A stretch of DNA of 64,000 bases, taken from Escherichia phage EP_H11. The notes beneath the pieces were generated by a model. The model saw nothing but the letters and a program-made list of their open reading frames with translations, was not told the DNA's origin and did no database searches. Positions 2,827 through 61,307 of the stretch are shown piece after piece; position 1 is the first letter of the stretch, and each line of letters begins with the position of its first letter. The position numbers and the translations under genes are program-made. The stretch is from the sequence record OP688485, one strand, 5' to 3'.

Positions 2827-2861
2827 CCGCTCTTTCTAAGGGTCGAAAGGCTGTTAAACTG
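2827..2861 (+). promoter_or_regulatory. conserved promoter-like element, copy 1 (CCGCTCTTT-N-TCGAAAGGCTGTTAAACTG)
   Basis: One of at least 12 near-identical copies; 3' part reads as extended -10 (TGnTAAAnT); lies ~75 nt upstream of ORF 2937. Confidence 0.55.
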
Positions 2862-2936
2862 TAGAGGTTATTCCTATAGAGCATCTGATGGTGCTCTATG
2901 TGAATAGTCTTAGGAGATATTAGGAGATATTAAGAT

Positions 2937-3296
2937 ATGTTTGAGAAATTAAAATCTATATTTAAAACTGTTCCAGCAATTCCCTTACTGACTAAATCGG
3001 AAGAGCGACTAGCTTATGAGAATATGATCCGTACTGGGGACCCTACCGAATTTATCAGAATGCTGGATAGTGATGAAATCCGGATGATTCGTAAAGATAC
3101 ATGGACTTGGGTAAGCGCTAATGATGTAATCCATGTCTATAACGATATTTACGGTCCGGAAGTTAAGCTGGGAGGAGTAAGTGCGTTAATTGACTGTAAT
3201 GGTGATGCTTACGGTCTATCTTACGAAGATGGTAAGAGAGTATATAACGCAATCTGGGACTCCTGCGACCGCTCCAGGAGGATGGCTCATGTTTAA
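2937..3296 (+). CDS. hypothetical protein
   Basis: 119-aa ORF downstream of promoter copy 1 and tandem GGAG motifs. Confidence 0.5.
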   Translation: MFEKLKSIFKTVPAIPLLTKSEERLAYENMIRTGDPTEFIRMLDSDEIRMIRKDTWTWVSANDVIHVYNDIYGPEVKLGGVSALIDCNGDAYGLSYEDGKRVYNAIWDSCDRSRRMAHV

Positions 3297-3459
3297 GTTA
3301 CTTATTGTAAGTAGTATTGTTGCTCGGGATGCTCCATCAGTTCACTCGGTAATTGCGGAATTTGAGACTAAAGATCAAGCAGATCGTGCCTACGACAAAA
3401 TGGTTGAATCTGCCAATCCTCAGTCCTGGGTATCTAACAAAGTAGTGAAACTTTACTAA
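3291..3459 (+). CDS. small hypothetical protein
   Basis: ATG overlapping upstream stop with AGGAGG 8 nt upstream; ORF track gives a longer TTG/ATG-extended version 3190..3459. Confidence 0.35.
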
Positions 3460-3678
3460 TAGCTGAGTTCTATTAAGGCACCTAACGGCCTAATAGTTGC
3501 TCTTCCGTAAAACAGATTCGATAGTCTGGGAAGAGCAGCTATATACTCTCATTAAGTAATGCGTATACATAGGGCACGATTAAGTTACGTCTCCGGCTAT
3601 GGTTGCATTACGAATAGTTAGGTAGTGTCCCTATTCAGATTGTCCGGAACTGGATAGAGGATGAAGGTATTGTCGAAA

Positions 3679-3925
3679 CCTTAGTGGGGACTGATGCGAA
3701 CTACACTAAGGTTTATACCCTCTCAACACCTTTAGGGGCATCTACGTAGTATACCTTGCGTCACGCGTAGGGTGAGCGAGTTAAAGCCCAAAGTGGCTTT
3801 AGGGAGCGAATCCCAGGGGGAGGCTCGGGTGGGCAAGGTCAGACTCTCCGGAGGAGTTTAGTCTCGTGTACGCGGCGGCTGGCAGAGCCGCCGCTACACT
3901 CCAATTGGTTAAATTAGATAAGGGG
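3679..3925 (+). ncRNA. candidate structured RNA element, copy A
   Basis: Lies in a 530-bp ORF-free gap; shares blocks (AAAGCCCRAAGTGGCTTT hairpin, GGCTCGGGTGG, GC-rich hairpin) with 53933..54133. Confidence 0.3.
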
Positions 3926-3988
3926 CCGGTAGTTCCTACGTCCATTAGTTTAGGAGTTATTATTTGATTATGTTGAGGAACACTATTA

Positions 3989-58291: not shown

Positions 58292-59551
58292 ATGTCAGAG
58301 ATCACACACGTAGCAAGTTTGTTTAACTCTAAGATCAAAGAGTCTATGGGACTCACGATTAATGATCTTCCTTGGTCTACTGAGATTGCAAGAGCCCTCG
58401 TGGAGTCCGGTATTAAGTTACCGGATGCCACCCCAGCTGTAATTCATTCGATACTTGGCGAAATATGTCCTGCTGAGGACATATCTAACTTTGTAGAGTT
58501 AGTTGAGAACTTCCGTCTGGTTACGGATCCTAAAGAAATCGAGAAGATTGTAAATAACTTCTTTAAGTTCTATCAGGAACGTAAGCTGACCGAGATCATG
58601 AAAGCTAATGCGGAAGATACGGGAACGCTGATCGATATGATTCGAGAGATTCCTCGTAGTCTTACTTCAACCATTCCGGTACATACTCTGGGTGGATTGG
58701 ACGTAGATACCGTGATGGAACATGACATCGGTGGTTTAGATGGGGTATTTCAGTCTACTCTGGATGTAGTTACAGAAGCATCAGTATTCAATGGCTACAT
58801 CCCTGGTCAGGTAATTCAGTTCGTAGGTCGTCCTGGTGGTGGTAAGTCTGCTATCATGTTGCAGGAAGTACTCGGATTCGCCACACAGGGTCGCCGTACG
58901 TTATGGGTAGCTCTTGGTGACTTAACTCGCTATGACTTCTTATCTCGTGCTACAGCAGTGATCACAGGTACTCCTTACGCCAAGGTAGTTGCTGAACTTA
59001 ATAAACACCTCACTGACGACGTTCGTGAGATCCTGAACTATATCGATCTGATTACGGTTCCATCCCGTAGCTTAGGTGCTGAAGATCTGGAAGAGTATCT
59101 GGATAGTTGCCGTGGTAAGAAACGCTATGACTGTCTGGTAGTCGACTATGACTCTAACCTTAAGCGCCCAGAAACTGGTAGCATGTATGATGATGGTGGC
59201 CATATCTATGACATACTGACATCTATTGCTAAGCCTATCTACGAACCTGCTCGTCTGGTATTCGTTGCTTCCCAGCCTAAGATTCAATACTGGGGTGAGG
59301 AAGAACTAAATATCGACTCAGCTGGTGAATCTGCTCGTAAGCAGCAGAACGTGGATATGATGATAACTGTAGGCCTGAGTCCTCGTAGTGAGAAGCATTG
59401 CGGCATCTTGAAAGTAGCTAAGTGCCGTCGTGGTAAGGATGGTGTTAGTTCACCATGGATCATGCGATCCCATGGGGAAATCGAACAGATAGGTCGTGAT
59501 GTGTATTCTCGCATGCAGACTTATGGCGGCAGAGGTGGTCGGAGGAACTAA
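58292..59551 (+). CDS. DnaB-like replicative helicase (RecA-fold ATPase)
   Basis: Walker A VGRPGGGKSAIM and Walker B-like CLVVDYDSNL. Confidence 0.6.
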   Translation: MSEITHVASLFNSKIKESMGLTINDLPWSTEIARALVESGIKLPDATPAVIHSILGEICPAEDISNFVELVENFRLVTDPKEIEKIVNNFFKFYQERKLTEIMKANAEDTGTLIDMIREIPRSLTSTIPVHTLGGLDVDTVMEHDIGGLDGVFQSTLDVVTEASVFNGYIPGQVIQFVGRPGGGKSAIMLQEVLGFATQGRRTLWVALGDLTRYDFLSRATAVITGTPYAKVVAELNKHLTDDVREILNYIDLITVPSRSLGAEDLEEYLDSCRGKKRYDCLVVDYDSNLKRPETGSMYDDGGHIYDILTSIAKPIYEPARLVFVASQPKIQYWGEEELNIDSAGESARKQQNVDMMITVGLSPRSEKHCGILKVAKCRRGKDGVSSPWIMRSHGEIEQIGRDVYSRMQTYGGRGGRRN

Positions 59552-60000
59552 TGGCAGTATTAGGAACTCATAACTATCTGCTGCAATACGGAGGGAACTT
59601 CCCCTCCGTAAACGAGATGTATAAAGTCGGGAGGGCTCGTGGAGGAAGATCATGGGTCTATCTAGACCCTAGCATCAAAGATTTTAAGGAGTGGGTTAAA
59701 TCCTCCCTAGATATGCAAGGAGCTCGTGAAGACTTCCTGGTATATAAAGGTAAGTCAGTGATGCTGAATATTAGGATGATATTCTCGTTTAGCCAGTCAT
59801 TCTGGACTCGTGACGTATCTAACCTAATTAAAGCAGTGGAAGATGCTGTCAAGGAAGCTATTAGCATAGATGATCGGTTCACCATCACCTTAAATATGGA
59901 TAAACTAATAAACGATAAAGATAATTACGAATACCTGATTTTAATCATGGAGGTATGTGAACTAGACGAAAAGTCTATCTCTTTATCAAGCATGGGGTAA
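59551..60000 (+). CDS. RusA-like Holliday junction resolvase (tentative)
   Basis: TRDVSNLIKAVEDAVKEAI resembles the RusA D-x-DN-x-K-x-x-DAL catalytic segment; 149 aa. Confidence 0.45.
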   Translation: MAVLGTHNYLLQYGGNFPSVNEMYKVGRARGGRSWVYLDPSIKDFKEWVKSSLDMQGAREDFLVYKGKSVMLNIRMIFSFSQSFWTRDVSNLIKAVEDAVKEAISIDDRFTITLNMDKLINDKDNYEYLILIMEVCELDEKSISLSSMG

Positions 60001-60003
60001 TAT

Positions 60004-60231
60004 ATGAGTGTAAAGTTGTCTGATATTGTAGGTACCCTACCCAACGAAGCTATGGTGTTCATGGTGCTTAGTTCCATCAGCCCAGGAAATAGCATAGAGA
60101 GTAAATATGGAACTATTACTCGTGTAACAGACGAGGAGTTCAAAATATCTATCAATGATGCTGTTAGCATGAAGCAAGATCTGGTCGATGAAGGAGATCC
60201 AGATGCTGGCTTAAGGAAGATATTTAAATGA
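60004..60231 (+). CDS. hypothetical protein
   Basis: 75 aa. Confidence 0.4.
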   Translation: MSVKLSDIVGTLPNEAMVFMVLSSISPGNSIESKYGTITRVTDEEFKISINDAVSMKQDLVDEGDPDAGLRKIFK

Positions 60232-61268
60232 TAAAAGAGATGGTAGAGATCCTCGAGAACGCTACCGTCGATAAGCTAGTGGAGTTGGTGAATAGGGAAA
60301 TTAATTCAGTGAAGAGGGATTCTCGCACCCTATTCACCCTATCCCTGGCGATCGTCCGACGGGTGTGTACTTATTATAAATTCAGAGGACAGACCGAAGA
60401 GGCATTATCTTCTGCAGTGACCAGCTTAACCTATATGCTGCTAACTACTACAGAAGAAGTTACTCGGGATCATCTCGAATCGATAATTAAGAAAGAAGTA
60501 AAGCAAGTATCGATCGACATGTTGGAACCCGAATTAGCCGAGAACTCAGATTTTTACAAGGCTCTGGAGTTAGGCAATAGTTACAGCGTGCGACAGGAAG
60601 TAGCTGTCCATCGCTATGTTAATCTTTGGAATCAGTTCCTCCCTAAACGATTTAAACCTATCATCCAGTTGTATTTAGACTGGGGAGTGGTTATGGTCGA
60701 GCATCTTGATCTTACAGACAGGATCATAGTAACTCGCATACTCGAACACATGGGAGCAATCGTGACCGACGTAGATATTAAAGCGATACAGGATCTGATT
60801 CCTAAGACGAATACAGAGAAGATGATGTTTCTGTCGATCTTGGCAGAGCACCATCCGGAACTGTTTCTGCTGCTCACATCTATCAAAGACATAGGCAAGT
60901 TCTTTACCTTCCTGGAATTACTAAATGGCAGGAAAGGGTTCCCGAAGGTGTCTAAGGTAGTTTCTATATTGGAAGCAGTGCGCAAGAATAGCGTGCTGGA
61001 TTCCATTAAGTCAGACATCTTCCAGGATAATGTTATGCTGGCTGTGATGTTAGACGGTATTACGTTCAATCCAGACAGTATTGGATTTACCTTCGCTGAC
61101 TCAGTACGTAAGGTAATCAAGGAAGAAACCAGTATTTACTTAGGAGCTCTGGATAAGTTAGCTAACCGAGTAGATAATGATCCGTCAGTGTTGGTTCGTA
61201 TGTACTCGATCATCAATACAGAAGAGCAGCATCGTGCTAAAATGATAGACCGATTGCGTAAAGTGTAG
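60228..61268 (+). CDS. hypothetical protein
   Basis: 346 aa in the replication block; no motif recognised. Confidence 0.45.
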   Translation: MIKEMVEILENATVDKLVELVNREINSVKRDSRTLFTLSLAIVRRVCTYYKFRGQTEEALSSAVTSLTYMLLTTTEEVTRDHLESIIKKEVKQVSIDMLEPELAENSDFYKALELGNSYSVRQEVAVHRYVNLWNQFLPKRFKPIIQLYLDWGVVMVEHLDLTDRIIVTRILEHMGAIVTDVDIKAIQDLIPKTNTEKMMFLSILAEHHPELFLLLTSIKDIGKFFTFLELLNGRKGFPKVSKVVSILEAVRKNSVLDSIKSDIFQDNVMLAVMLDGITFNPDSIGFTFADSVRKVIKEETSIYLGALDKLANRVDNDPSVLVRMYSIINTEEQHRAKMIDRLRKV

Positions 61269-61272
61269 TCCG

Positions 61273-61307
61273 CCGCTCTTTTGGAGGGTCGAAAGGCTGT
61301 TAAGGTG
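61273..61307 (+). promoter_or_regulatory. conserved promoter-like element, copy 12
   Basis: CCGCTCTTTTGGAGGGTCGAAAGGCTGTTAAGGTG, ~58 nt upstream of the SSB-like gene. Confidence 0.5.

Follow-up and report, generated by a model that had tools for sequence, protein, structure and literature searches.

The 64,000-nucleotide stretch of Escherichia phage EP_H11 DNA that was analysed (sequence record OP688485; hereafter the window) is approximately 93% identical to Escherichia phage vB_EcoM_IME392, and carries non-structural genes in + strand arms together with a minus-strand structural (late) block of 38 kb located at 12.3-50.0 kb. An element of the form CCGCTCTTT-N7-TCGAAAGGCTGTTAAAnTG occurs 12 times in this window, always on the + strand. 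The copies are listed here with the features that adjoin them, where each copy extends from the C of CCGC to the G after the hexamer (35 nt).

2827-2861, + strand: copy 1, CCGCTCTTTCTAAGGGTCGAAAGGCTGTTAAACTG; directly abuts the stop codon of ORF 2593-2826 (0 nt), with a 75-nt gap to the ATG at 2937
2875-2900, + strand: 11-bp hairpin in the leader 3' of copy 1 (folding z = -6.3 for the first 45 nt)
4224-4258, + strand: copy 2, ACGCTCTTT...CTGAAAGGCTGTTAATGTG; separated by 1 nt from the preceding stop (4222) and by 24 nt from the following ATG (4283)
6939-6973, + strand: copy 3, with the variant upstream block CCGCCGTTT; 27 nt before the ATG at 7001 of an exonuclease-like gene
8014-8048, + strand: copy 4, overlapping the final codons of ORF 7698-8027; separated by 17 nt from the ATG at 8066 and heading an operon with dUTPase and dCTP deaminase genes
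50095-50129, + strand: copy 5, heading the + arm; separated by 15 nt from the ATG at 50145, with the divergent minus-strand gene (49478-50008) starting 86 nt away
51119-51153, + strand: copy 6, separated by 2 nt from the preceding stop (51116); followed by a hairpin at 51153-51173
51724-51758, + strand: copy 7, within the 3' end of ORF 51234-51782; no downstream ORF
51906-51940, + strand: copy 8, ACACTCTTT..., with the hexamer TGAATT; 0.5 kb 5' of the tRNA cluster at 52453-53299
53608-53642, + strand: copy 9, immediately 5' of a 637-nt ORF-free stretch (53643-54279)
55079-55113, + strand: copy 10, CCGCCGTTT...CTAAAAGGCTGTTAAAGCG, with C for T at -7; 7 nt after the stop at 55071 and followed by a terminator-like hairpin at 55119-55132
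56066-56100, + strand: copy 11, CCGCCTTTA...; 20 nt before the ATG at 56121, heading the helicase operon
61273-61307, + strand: copy 12, separated by 4 nt from the preceding stop (61268) and by 57 nt from the following ATG (61365); followed by a hairpin with a T-rich tail at 61307-61325

All 12 copies that had been named in a preliminary description of this DNA were recovered. Searches with the 19-mer TCGAAAGGCTGTTAAANTG, allowing up to three mismatches, yielded 11 + strand matches in the window versus 0.05 expected, and the twelfth copy (55079) was detected by using a shorter core. With a 50-nt weight matrix, the 12 copies score 46-66 bits, whereas the best other site on either strand of the window scores 10.5, and the element family is therefore sharply bounded. 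The same matrix finds no copies on either strand of the structural block, in agreement with the earlier claim that the late region lacks them. Nine of the previously assigned start positions are correct, and the remaining three shift from 8024 to 8014, from 51723 to 51724, and from 51908 to 51906.

The two conserved blocks had been described as separated by 6-9 variable nucleotides, but their spacing is in fact constant, with 16 nt from the first C to TCGAAAGG in all 12 copies. The upstream block (CCGCTCTTT) lies at about -40 to -32, and thus falls partly upstream of the -35 hexamer position to which it had been assigned. The downstream block, TCGAAAGGC-TGT-TAAAnT-G, spans positions -24 to -6. 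Conservation counts were drawn from 35 unique copies, among which the ten consecutive positions from -21 to -12 (AAAGGCTGTT) are invariant (35/35), consistent with the initial impression of a fixed spacer that sigma-70 does not explain. These positions include TG at -15/-14 and T at -12, each present in 35/35 copies. The A at -11 is found in 34/35, the T at -7 in 32/35, the G at -6 (directly after the hexamer) in 35/35, and an A located six bases after T(-7) in 31/35, while hexamer positions -9 and -8 are variable. The upstream sequence CGCTCTTT is present in 8 of the 12 window copies and in 21/35 unique copies.

Copies are intergenic or overlap only the final codons of the preceding gene. A start within a few nucleotides of an upstream stop codon, once ascribed to every copy, holds for six of them (0-7 nt); two others (8014 and 51724) overlap the final codons of the preceding ORF, and four are preceded by non-coding DNA or a divergent junction. 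Nine copies do precede start codons, although the distance from the end of the motif is 15-80 nt rather than 20-90 nt. The copies at 51724, 51906 and 53608 indeed have no ORF downstream, and are followed instead by the tRNA cluster and by ORF-free, RNA-like regions. The GTG codons at 4256 and 50127 fall inside the motif, as had been noticed, and better ATG start codons with Shine-Dalgarno sequences are present at 4283 and 50145. Copies at the head of an arm occupy the divergent junction (50095 in the window and 102861 in Acinetobacter phage Ab1-TPeters), and none is located at the distal end of the arm. GC-rich hairpins, some with T-rich tails, begin no more than 14 nt 3' of 4/12 window copies, 6/25 copies in IME392 and 14/33 in Ab1-TPeters, compared with 0.8-1.7 expected. 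If initiation precedes these hairpins, then the element's own transcripts could be terminated there.

A search of related phages, which the preliminary description had proposed, revealed homologous two-block elements in IME392, Ab1-TPeters and Ralstonia phage RP13. The complete IME392 genome carries 25 copies distributed over about 74 kb, all on the strand that encodes the non-structural genes, and its 42-kb structural block carries none. Ab1-TPeters has 33 homologous sites, all on the + strand and in the non-structural arm or its head; RP13 has at least nine in 41 kb, and a related metagenome fragment (L130) has one. The C-terminal fragments of the RNA polymerase beta-prime subunit in Ab1-TPeters and RP13 are about 50% and 35% identical, respectively. 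Sites in these three more distant relatives combine a CTCT(T/A) upstream block with an (A)CCTGTT, GCTGTT or CCTTGT core at the same spacing, where Ab1-TPeters carries TCTCTTAA and RP13 carries GACTCTAT at the position of the upstream block. Tandem copies, which are typical of promoters, are found in IME392 and Ab1-TPeters. IME392 has one tandem copy more than the window, lying 58 nt from the adjacent copy, and this difference represents an indel that is bounded by motif copies.

The proposal that the 3' end of the element reads as an extended -10 sequence is borne out in part. TGnTAnnnT is present in full in 10 of the 12 window copies and in 31/35 unique copies, but TAnnnT in exact register is mostly absent from the relatives (8/33 sites in Ab1-TPeters and 2/9 in RP13). 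Thus, sigma-70 reading of an extended -10 is not the principle conserved in the element, and this aspect may apply only to the E. coli phages, or nowhere. A canonical -35/-10 promoter was rejected, because no TTGACA-like hexamer resides 16-18 nt upstream of the -10 sequence; a consensus scan for such promoters calls none of the copies, and bases -35 to -30 read CTTTnn. Moreover, canonical sigma-70 promoters are not enriched in the + arms (26 versus 28 expected, and 21 versus 27).

Given the co-orientation of the copies, their placement before genes, tRNAs and RNA regions, and the lack of standout canonical sigma-70 sites, the best reading of the element is as a promoter. The idea of a phage-specific promoter class accords with its behaviour, in that the copies are co-oriented, avoid the late block and constitute the sole promoter-like signal detected. 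Judging from these sequence patterns, we consider it probable that the element drives the phage's non-structural transcription units and that its recognition is partly specified by the phage. The units served would include host-takeover, nucleotide-metabolism and replication genes, tRNAs and non-coding RNAs, and this gene content suggests that expression may be early or middle. RNA synthesis would begin a few bases past the hexamer, either at the conserved A six bases after it or at the invariant G directly after it. The downstream block in this E. coli phage also matches an extended -10 (TGnTAnnnT), which the host sigma-70 polymerase could use. On this reading, recognition of the invariant spacer and of the upstream block must depend on something specified by the phage lineage, which could be a sigma-like or DNA-binding factor or a polymerase modified by the phage's own beta-prime.

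A simpler possibility is that the element is a plain host sigma-70 extended -10 promoter that requires no phage factor, and that its flanks reflect recent cassette copying and strength tuning, for which T4 and T5 early promoters provide a comparison case. The near-uniform TG, T(-12), A(-11) and T(-7) noted above fit this explanation, as does the failure to detect any other promoter candidates. Furthermore, every non-structural gene sits behind the element, the IME392 beta-prime genes among them, and therefore whatever reads it must be available at the moment of infection. However, the explanation is unlikely on balance: the copies lack a -35 match, the block from -21 to -12 is invariant even though the hexamer itself varies at -9 and -8, and the CTGTT core and CTCT(T/A) block are retained in Acinetobacter and Ralstonia phages, in which TAnnnT is mostly lacking. 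Because the element is conserved between genera, cassette copying within a genome is insufficient to account for it.

Two other explanations give the element a main role other than transcription initiation. The upstream sequence CGCTCTTT matches the boxA consensus, CGCTCTT(T)A, of lambda nut sites and rrn leaders, which makes a role at the RNA level on read-through transcripts conceivable. Under this scheme, the boxA-like CGCUCUUU would recruit NusB/NusE ahead of the hairpins, as in nut or rrn antitermination, or the element would be a site at which an endoribonuclease cleaves long polycistronic RNAs. An RNA site would be expected to have the strand bias and intergenic location of a promoter, the hairpins enriched directly 3' are in some cases terminator-like, and the boxA match has equivalents in the sequences from Ab1-TPeters and RP13. 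We nevertheless regard this role as improbable, since a boxB-type hairpin is missing, bases -27 to -25 vary without complementing the invariant GGC, and folding is overall no better than that of shuffled sequences. In addition, 25 sites per genome far exceed the need for nut sites, and no copy marks the distal end of the arm. Read-through would transcribe the internal copies, but the arm-head copies of the IME392 type and of Ab1-TPeters have only 86-130 nt of non-conserved upstream DNA with no recognisable promoter. The phage would also be left without any detectable promoter. It is highly improbable that the element serves instead as a DNA hairpin or dyad site, or as a recombination cassette that functions mainly in gene shuffling, like the promoter-stem-loop repeats of T4-type phages. 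Minimum-energy folds do pair GC(N)CUUU with AAAGGC in 7 of the 12 copies, and the extra IME392 copy is an indel flanked by motif copies. However, folding of the 35-mers is weak (mean z about -1.1, with energies of only -4 to -9 kcal/mol) and reveals no consistent self-structure, and inverted repeats in the upstream region are no more common than in shuffled controls (mean best stem 2.66 versus 2.76). The 3' arm of the stem is invariant and thus offers no covariation, the pairing is missing from the Ab1-TPeters and RP13 versions, and recombination requires no strict relationship to strand or gene starts.

Several known systems resemble the element in part. T4 middle promoters likewise replace the -35 with a phage-specific upstream box that is paired with TAnnnT, often TGn-extended, and they are scattered in one orientation before replication and nucleotide-metabolism genes. 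The T4 MotA box, (a/t)(a/t)(a/t)TGCTTtA, is centred at -30 and operates through sigma appropriation by MotA and AsiA. In contrast, the element has two conserved blocks plus an invariant spacer (-24 to -16), its relatives drop TAnnnT, and the + arm proteins of the window gave no match to the MotA or AsiA families. A MotA box is not present at -30, since positions -34 to -25 comprise TTT and a variable 7-mer, with no TGCTT. Extended -10 promoters of E. coli share TGnTAnnnT and the lack of a recognisable -35, but they carry no conserved spacer or upstream block, whereas the spacer of the element is more conserved than its hexamer. Lambda nut and rrn boxA cores are identical to CGCTCTTT, yet the element occurs in 25 copies without boxB, and its upstream block would be absent from RNAs that the element initiates because that block lies upstream of the predicted start site. 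The promoter-early stem-loop repeats of T4-type phages are also intergenic, promoter-like, often followed by a stem-loop and associated with copy-bounded indels, but they share no sequence with the element, of which roughly one copy in three has a hairpin.

The promoters of phage-encoded multisubunit RNA polymerases, namely the virion and non-virion enzymes of phiKZ and AR9, offer a parallel, because here too a homologue of the cellular polymerase is encoded in the phage lineage. The early motif of those phages is an AT-rich run of some 10 nt at -10, and late promoters of AR9 carry AACA-N6-T(A/G). The invariant T-G of the element at a possible start resembles the phiKZ late TATG and the AR9 T(-1) A/G(+1). 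However, phiKZ and AR9 have two complete sets of beta and beta-prime fragments, whereas IME392 and Ab1-TPeters encode beta-prime only. An early promoter for a jumbo-phage virion polymerase was rejected given the single split beta-prime, with no beta, in IME392 and Ab1-TPeters, and given the 35-nt length, two blocks and GC-containing invariant positions of the element. A further parallel is that, for phages of the phiKZ/AR9 type, a conserved motif upstream of early operons can be found computationally, whereas late promoters are hard to see (PMC7598289).

The beta-prime encoded by the complete IME392 and Ab1-TPeters genomes is split, catalytically intact and much nearer to bacterial RpoC (E = 5e-52) than to AR9, and neither of these two genomes encodes a beta subunit. 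Distant phages of other hosts that bear related versions of the element likewise encode their own beta-prime. Among the window proteins, no sigma, MotA/AsiA or regulator families were found, and no polymerase domain was found in the late-block proteins. No Pfam or PHROGs match to MotA or AsiA was obtained for the + arm proteins of the window, with the rest of the genome partly screened. Pfam and PHROG scans of the large proteins tested revealed no single-subunit RNA polymerase, and none is annotated in IME392 or Ab1-TPeters.

Returning to the promoter reading, a recognition component specified by the phage lineage is likely, because AAAGGCTGTT is not explained by an extended -10 and TAnnnT is mostly lacking in the relatives. 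Since the complete IME392 and Ab1-TPeters genomes encode beta-prime and no beta, the enzyme that reads the element may differ from plain host polymerase, and a phage/host hybrid can be envisaged. Specifically, though we consider this model unlikely, the split, catalytically intact phage beta-prime might replace that of the host and operate with host beta, alpha and omega, perhaps along with an unrecognised sigma-like partner. In that case the invariant AAAGGC spacer together with the CTGTT core would determine the specificity of a re-engineered enzyme, whose recognition possibly occurs in the context of hypermodified thymine. If true, such a hybrid polymerase, with the motif as its promoter, would constitute a previously undescribed form of phage takeover of host transcription.

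A scan of the window for TCGAAAGGCTGTTAAANTG with up to three mismatches yields 11 matches on the plus strand, compared with 0.05 expected from shuffled sequences, and a twelfth copy at 55079 is recovered with a shorter core. The two-block form with CCGCTCTTT has six exact matches in the window where none is expected. When a 50-nt weight matrix was built from the 12 copies and applied to both strands, these copies scored 46 to 66 bits whereas the next best site reached only 10.5, and therefore the motif family is sharply bounded. The same scan found no copy in the minus-strand block (12.3-50.0 kb). 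The preliminary description had claimed at least 12 plus-strand copies and none in the late block, and both statements are borne out, with copy coordinates that were correct to within 1-10 nt. However, the variable spacing of 6-9 nt that it gave between the two blocks must be abandoned: the register is fixed, with TCGAAAGG always 16 nt from the initial C of the upstream block.

Conservation was evaluated by pooling the 35 unique copies of the window and of its close relative Escherichia phage vB_EcoM_IME392 (hereafter IME392; complete genome MH719082.1), with TAAAnT treated as a -10 hexamer occupying positions -12 to -7.

Conservation of the motif among 35 unique copies
-21 to -12: AAAGGCTGTT, 35 of 35
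-11: A, 34 of 35
-10: A, 34 of 35
-9 and -8: variable hexamer positions
-7: T, 32 of 35
-6: G, 35 of 35
six bases past the T at -7: A, 31 of 35
full TGnTAnnnT: 31 of 35

More degeneracy is seen in the upstream block CCGCTCTTT, which occupies -40 to -32, and the seven bases that separate the two blocks occur as a few recurring variants. Among these copies the spacer is more conserved than the hexamer, a pattern that is not predicted by sigma-70 recognition. An attempt to footprint the motif by comparing the window with IME392 did not separate it from its flanks (0.96-0.97 versus 0.88-0.94 identity), because the two sequences, at about 93% identity, are too alike.

The window corresponds to the reverse complement of positions ~47.4-116.2 kb of the 116,460-bp IME392 record. 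Its non-structural arm begins at 50.1 kb and continues past the right end, positions 1-12.25 kb are the distal end of the same arm, and the structural and lysis block lies between the two parts on the minus strand. Plus-strand genes of the window include those for dUTPase, dCTP deaminase, an exonuclease, NADAR, RusA, two helicases and an SbcC-like nuclease. Applied to the complete IME392 genome, the matrix detects 25 copies. Every one shares the strand of the non-structural genes; together they span ~74 kb, with a density of about one per 3 kb, and the ~42-kb structural block is devoid of them.

Copy 50095 lies where the genes of the two strands diverge, 86 nt away from the first minus-strand gene, and thus is the first signal of the non-structural arm. 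The gene that follows (50145-50486, 113 amino acids) has a helix-hairpin-helix-like look by eye; it is conserved in Acinetobacter phage Ab1-TPeters (Ab1; PP763253.1, 103880-104215), with a motif copy immediately ahead of it in both phages. Every copy had been described as starting within a few nucleotides of an upstream stop codon, which holds for six (0-7 nt past the stop) but not for the rest, such as copies 8014 and 51724, which share bases with the final codons of the gene before them. Nine copies do precede a start codon equipped with a Shine-Dalgarno sequence, at a distance of 15-80 nt rather than 20-90 nt. The three copies reported to have no downstream ORF indeed have none, and are followed by four clustered tRNA genes (52453-53299) and by long ORF-free stretches. 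For annotation, the motif corrects two false start codons and defines transcription units.

The tRNA cluster encodes Gly-TCC, Arg-TCT, Met-CAT and an 85-nt tRNA (52534-52618) that is recognized by Rfam but not by ARAGORN, and two more tRNA-like 3' ends (GGTTCGA...CCA) that neither program calls are present at 53300-53500. Two ORF-free stretches of the plus strand, 3460-3988 and 53643-54279, share a core of ~76 nt with 80% identity (GTAAAGCCCRAAGTGGCTTTAG...GGCTCGGGTGG, at ~3757-3832 and 53960-54032), after which they diverge into sequences that each form hairpins. Conservation of the former stretch in IME392 reaches 97.9%, which exceeds the genome average, and the latter lies directly behind copy 53608. 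Neither matches an Rfam family at E <= 1, and we consider them candidate paralogous structured RNAs.

Relatives were sought by tblastn with the C-terminal fragment of the IME392 RNA polymerase beta-prime subunit. Acinetobacter phages vB_AbaM_3098 and Ab1 match it with ~50% identity and Ralstonia phage RP13 with 35%, and further matches were obtained in Rhizobium, Vibrio, YerA41 and Carin-5 phages and, distantly, in AR9. A search of the rest of the genome and of related phages had been proposed as a check, and it returned related sites in addition to the IME392 copies. Ab1 has the same two-arm layout as the window and IME392, its commonest 11- to 13-mers are AAAAGCTGTTTAA and AAAACCTGTTAAG, and a matrix scan locates 33 sites, all on the plus strand of the non-structural arm and one of them at the arm head (102861). 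These sites carry the core AAAn(G/C)CTGTT, then five or six mostly A/T bases and then GT, and they fall into two subtypes. Subtype A, with the upstream block AACTCnAAAtTGAG, precedes replication and nucleotide-metabolism genes, and subtype B, with CCTGT(C/T)TCTTAA, precedes small ORFs and both beta-prime genes; the two may represent temporal classes, possibly early and middle promoters. RP13 carries at least nine copies of AACGAC(G/T)CTAT-N10-GACCTTGT in 41 kb.

Common to all versions are an upstream block, CTCT(T/A), and, ~21-22 nt downstream of it, a core that reads CTGTT or CTTGT. The E. coli phages additionally have a very good extended -10, and the extended -10 reading in the preliminary description is therefore apt for them (31 of 35 copies), but not for the family: TAnnnT stands in the exact register in only 8 of the 33 Ab1 sites and 2 of the 9 RP13 sites. 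Thus, the sigma-70 -10 hexamer is not the conserved principle.

Other searches for relatives returned less. Exact-pattern scans with a 14-base core gave only chance single matches in public viral contigs, and the 19-mer gave no match in viral contigs and, in metagenomes, one true short relative (fragment L150) and nine chance matches. A single helicase protein query found no relatives, and a two-sequence helicase alignment found one useful metagenome fragment (L130), whose helicase is 43% identical to that of the window and which carries an RP13-type site. YerA41 has its own repeated element, ACCGTTGTTATTGTTGGGAGCGG. Its 58404-99066 stretch contains four plus-strand copies of a repeat longer than 40 nt, ACCGTTGTTATTGTTGGGAGCGGCGGGGCTTTGG, which may be the YerA41 counterpart of the motif together with a conserved leader, or else a small RNA present in several copies.

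Both IME392 and Ab1 encode a split beta-prime subunit.

Phage beta-prime fragments
IME392, 16457-18025: N-terminal fragment, Pfam Rpb1 domains 1-2, E = 5e-52 versus E. coli RpoC
IME392, 19904-21418: C-terminal fragment, Pfam Rpb1 domains 3-5, E = 1e-25 versus E. coli RpoC
Ab1 (PP763253.1), 22684-24207 and 62831-64147: split beta-prime

The catalytic NADFDGD motif reads NMDVDGD with all three aspartates in place, and in IME392 the zinc-finger cysteines are retained as well. No beta homologue was detected among six-frame ORFs of the complete IME392 and Ab1 genomes with E. coli RpoB and YerA41 beta as queries, and in a positive control RpoB finds YerA41 beta at 7e-46. In YerA41 the N-terminal beta-prime fragment, the C-terminal fragment and beta are consecutive, and its polymerase subunits are reported to be expressed early and associated with the particle (PMC7354516). 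The beta-prime genes of IME392 and Ab1 lie downstream of motif copies, and therefore the first round of transcription must use the host polymerase or proteins delivered by the virion. The window itself contains no polymerase homologue, and screens of hypothetical proteins of IME392 and the window against Pfam, PHROGs and PDB sequences revealed no sigma factor, MotA/AsiA or other regulator family, beta subunit or virion polymerase. The N-terminal beta-prime fragment is directly preceded, in IME392 and Ab1 alike, by a conserved gene of ~200-240 codons that matches no recognizable family. We found no paper on the motif or on phages with beta-prime alone, and the YerA41 papers predict generic sigma-70 promoters only.

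Canonical sigma-70 matches in the two plus-strand arms number 26 (28.2 expected from shuffles) and 21 (27.0 expected), and none coincides with the motif. Therefore, if the genes of these arms have sequence-recognizable promoters, the motif is the promoter. Upstream of the late genes (12300-50008, minus strand) there is no strong shared motif; ~7 of 36 genes are preceded at 15-30 nt by a weak (C)TTTAACT signal (p ~1e-3, uncorrected), and we do not claim it as a late promoter. The plus-strand arm also holds classic intrinsic terminators at 6304-6325 and ~62385-62415, each a GC hairpin followed by a T run, which suggests that terminators of the bacterial type are recognized by the transcribing enzyme.

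The motif has no convincing structure of its own. Folding of the twelve 35-mers gives -4 to -9 kcal/mol with z-scores of 0 to -2.6 (mean ~-1.1), and inverted repeats in the upstream half are not in excess (mean best stem 2.66 versus 2.76 in shuffles). Weak pairing of GC(N)CUUU with AAAGGC is possible in 7 of 12 copies, and covariation cannot be assessed because the 3' partner AAAGGC is invariant. Hairpin and dyad models of the motif were rejected on these tests. Downstream, hairpins beginning no more than 14 nt from the invariant G exceed the shuffled expectation, and so do those with a T-rich tail.

Hairpins downstream of the motif
Window: 4 of 12 copies (shuffled mean 0.8); with T-rich tail, 2 of 12 (~0.2)
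IME392: 6 of 25 copies (shuffled mean 1.7); with T-rich tail, 4 of 25 (~0.2)
Ab1: 14 of 33 copies (shuffled mean 1.6); with T-rich tail, 6 of 33 (~0.2)

They are found at copies with long leaders, and short leaders go directly into GGAGG and ATG. A sigma-70-like start at the conserved A would lie inside the 5' arm of these hairpins, such that the structure would form in read-through RNA but not in transcripts initiated at the motif. If the invariant G were the start, transcripts would instead carry a 5'-terminal hairpin. Both models are compatible with the hairpin data.

We conclude that the motif is probably the promoter class of all non-structural transcription units. A plain sigma-70 promoter would account for the 3' end of the motif and for the need of an enzyme present at infection, but leaves both the invariant spacer and the conservation between genera unexplained. 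An RNA-level signal deserves consideration since the core of boxA is CGCTCTTT, which the upstream block equals in 8 of 12 window copies, and since hairpins occur downstream; however, a boxB-like stem is absent, the sites are too numerous, copies stand at the head of the arm, and on this reading the phage would lack detectable promoters altogether. For a DNA hairpin or recombination cassette, one can point to a single insertion/deletion bounded by motif copies, where IME392 (reverse-complement 56903-57144) has one extra tandem copy, 58 nt from its neighbour, relative to window 51740-51922. This event is consistent with unequal recombination between copies, and the folding and inverted-repeat tests lend the cassette no support.

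For the promoter reading, the core is kept across phages of three host genera and the sigma-70-like part is not, a contrast suggesting that transcription specificity is set by a determinant of the lineage itself; a lineage-carried recognition component is the simplest explanation of the conserved element. The earlier proposal that host RNA polymerase acts with a phage factor is plausible and has partial support, although its extended -10 is limited to this phage, and the lineage's own beta-prime opens a more unusual option. A hybrid enzyme in which phage beta-prime would be combined with host beta is an attractive hypothesis.

These phages form a poorly studied group with hypermodified thymine that includes IME392-like (E. 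coli), Ab1-TPeters-like (Acinetobacter) and RP13 (Ralstonia) phages. IME392 has a gene for a 5-hmdU DNA kinase, and a published grouping places its DNA polymerase with that of YerA41, whose thymine is hypermodified (PMC12686479). The thymine hypermodification gene set is represented by the dUTPase (8667-9137) and dCTP deaminase (9408-10031) genes of the window and the IME392 kinase gene (33740-34711). IME392 also carries a full-length gene for a BCCT betaine/carnitine/choline transporter (37577-38959; Pfam E = 1e-92), an unusual gene in a phage genome. The motif provides a complete and testable promoter map of the non-structural half of these phages, and it may serve as an orthogonal promoter for engineering. 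Because the complete genomes of IME392 and Ab1 encode beta-prime without beta, the motif is also a natural handle on the transcribing enzyme and on the question of a hybrid polymerase.
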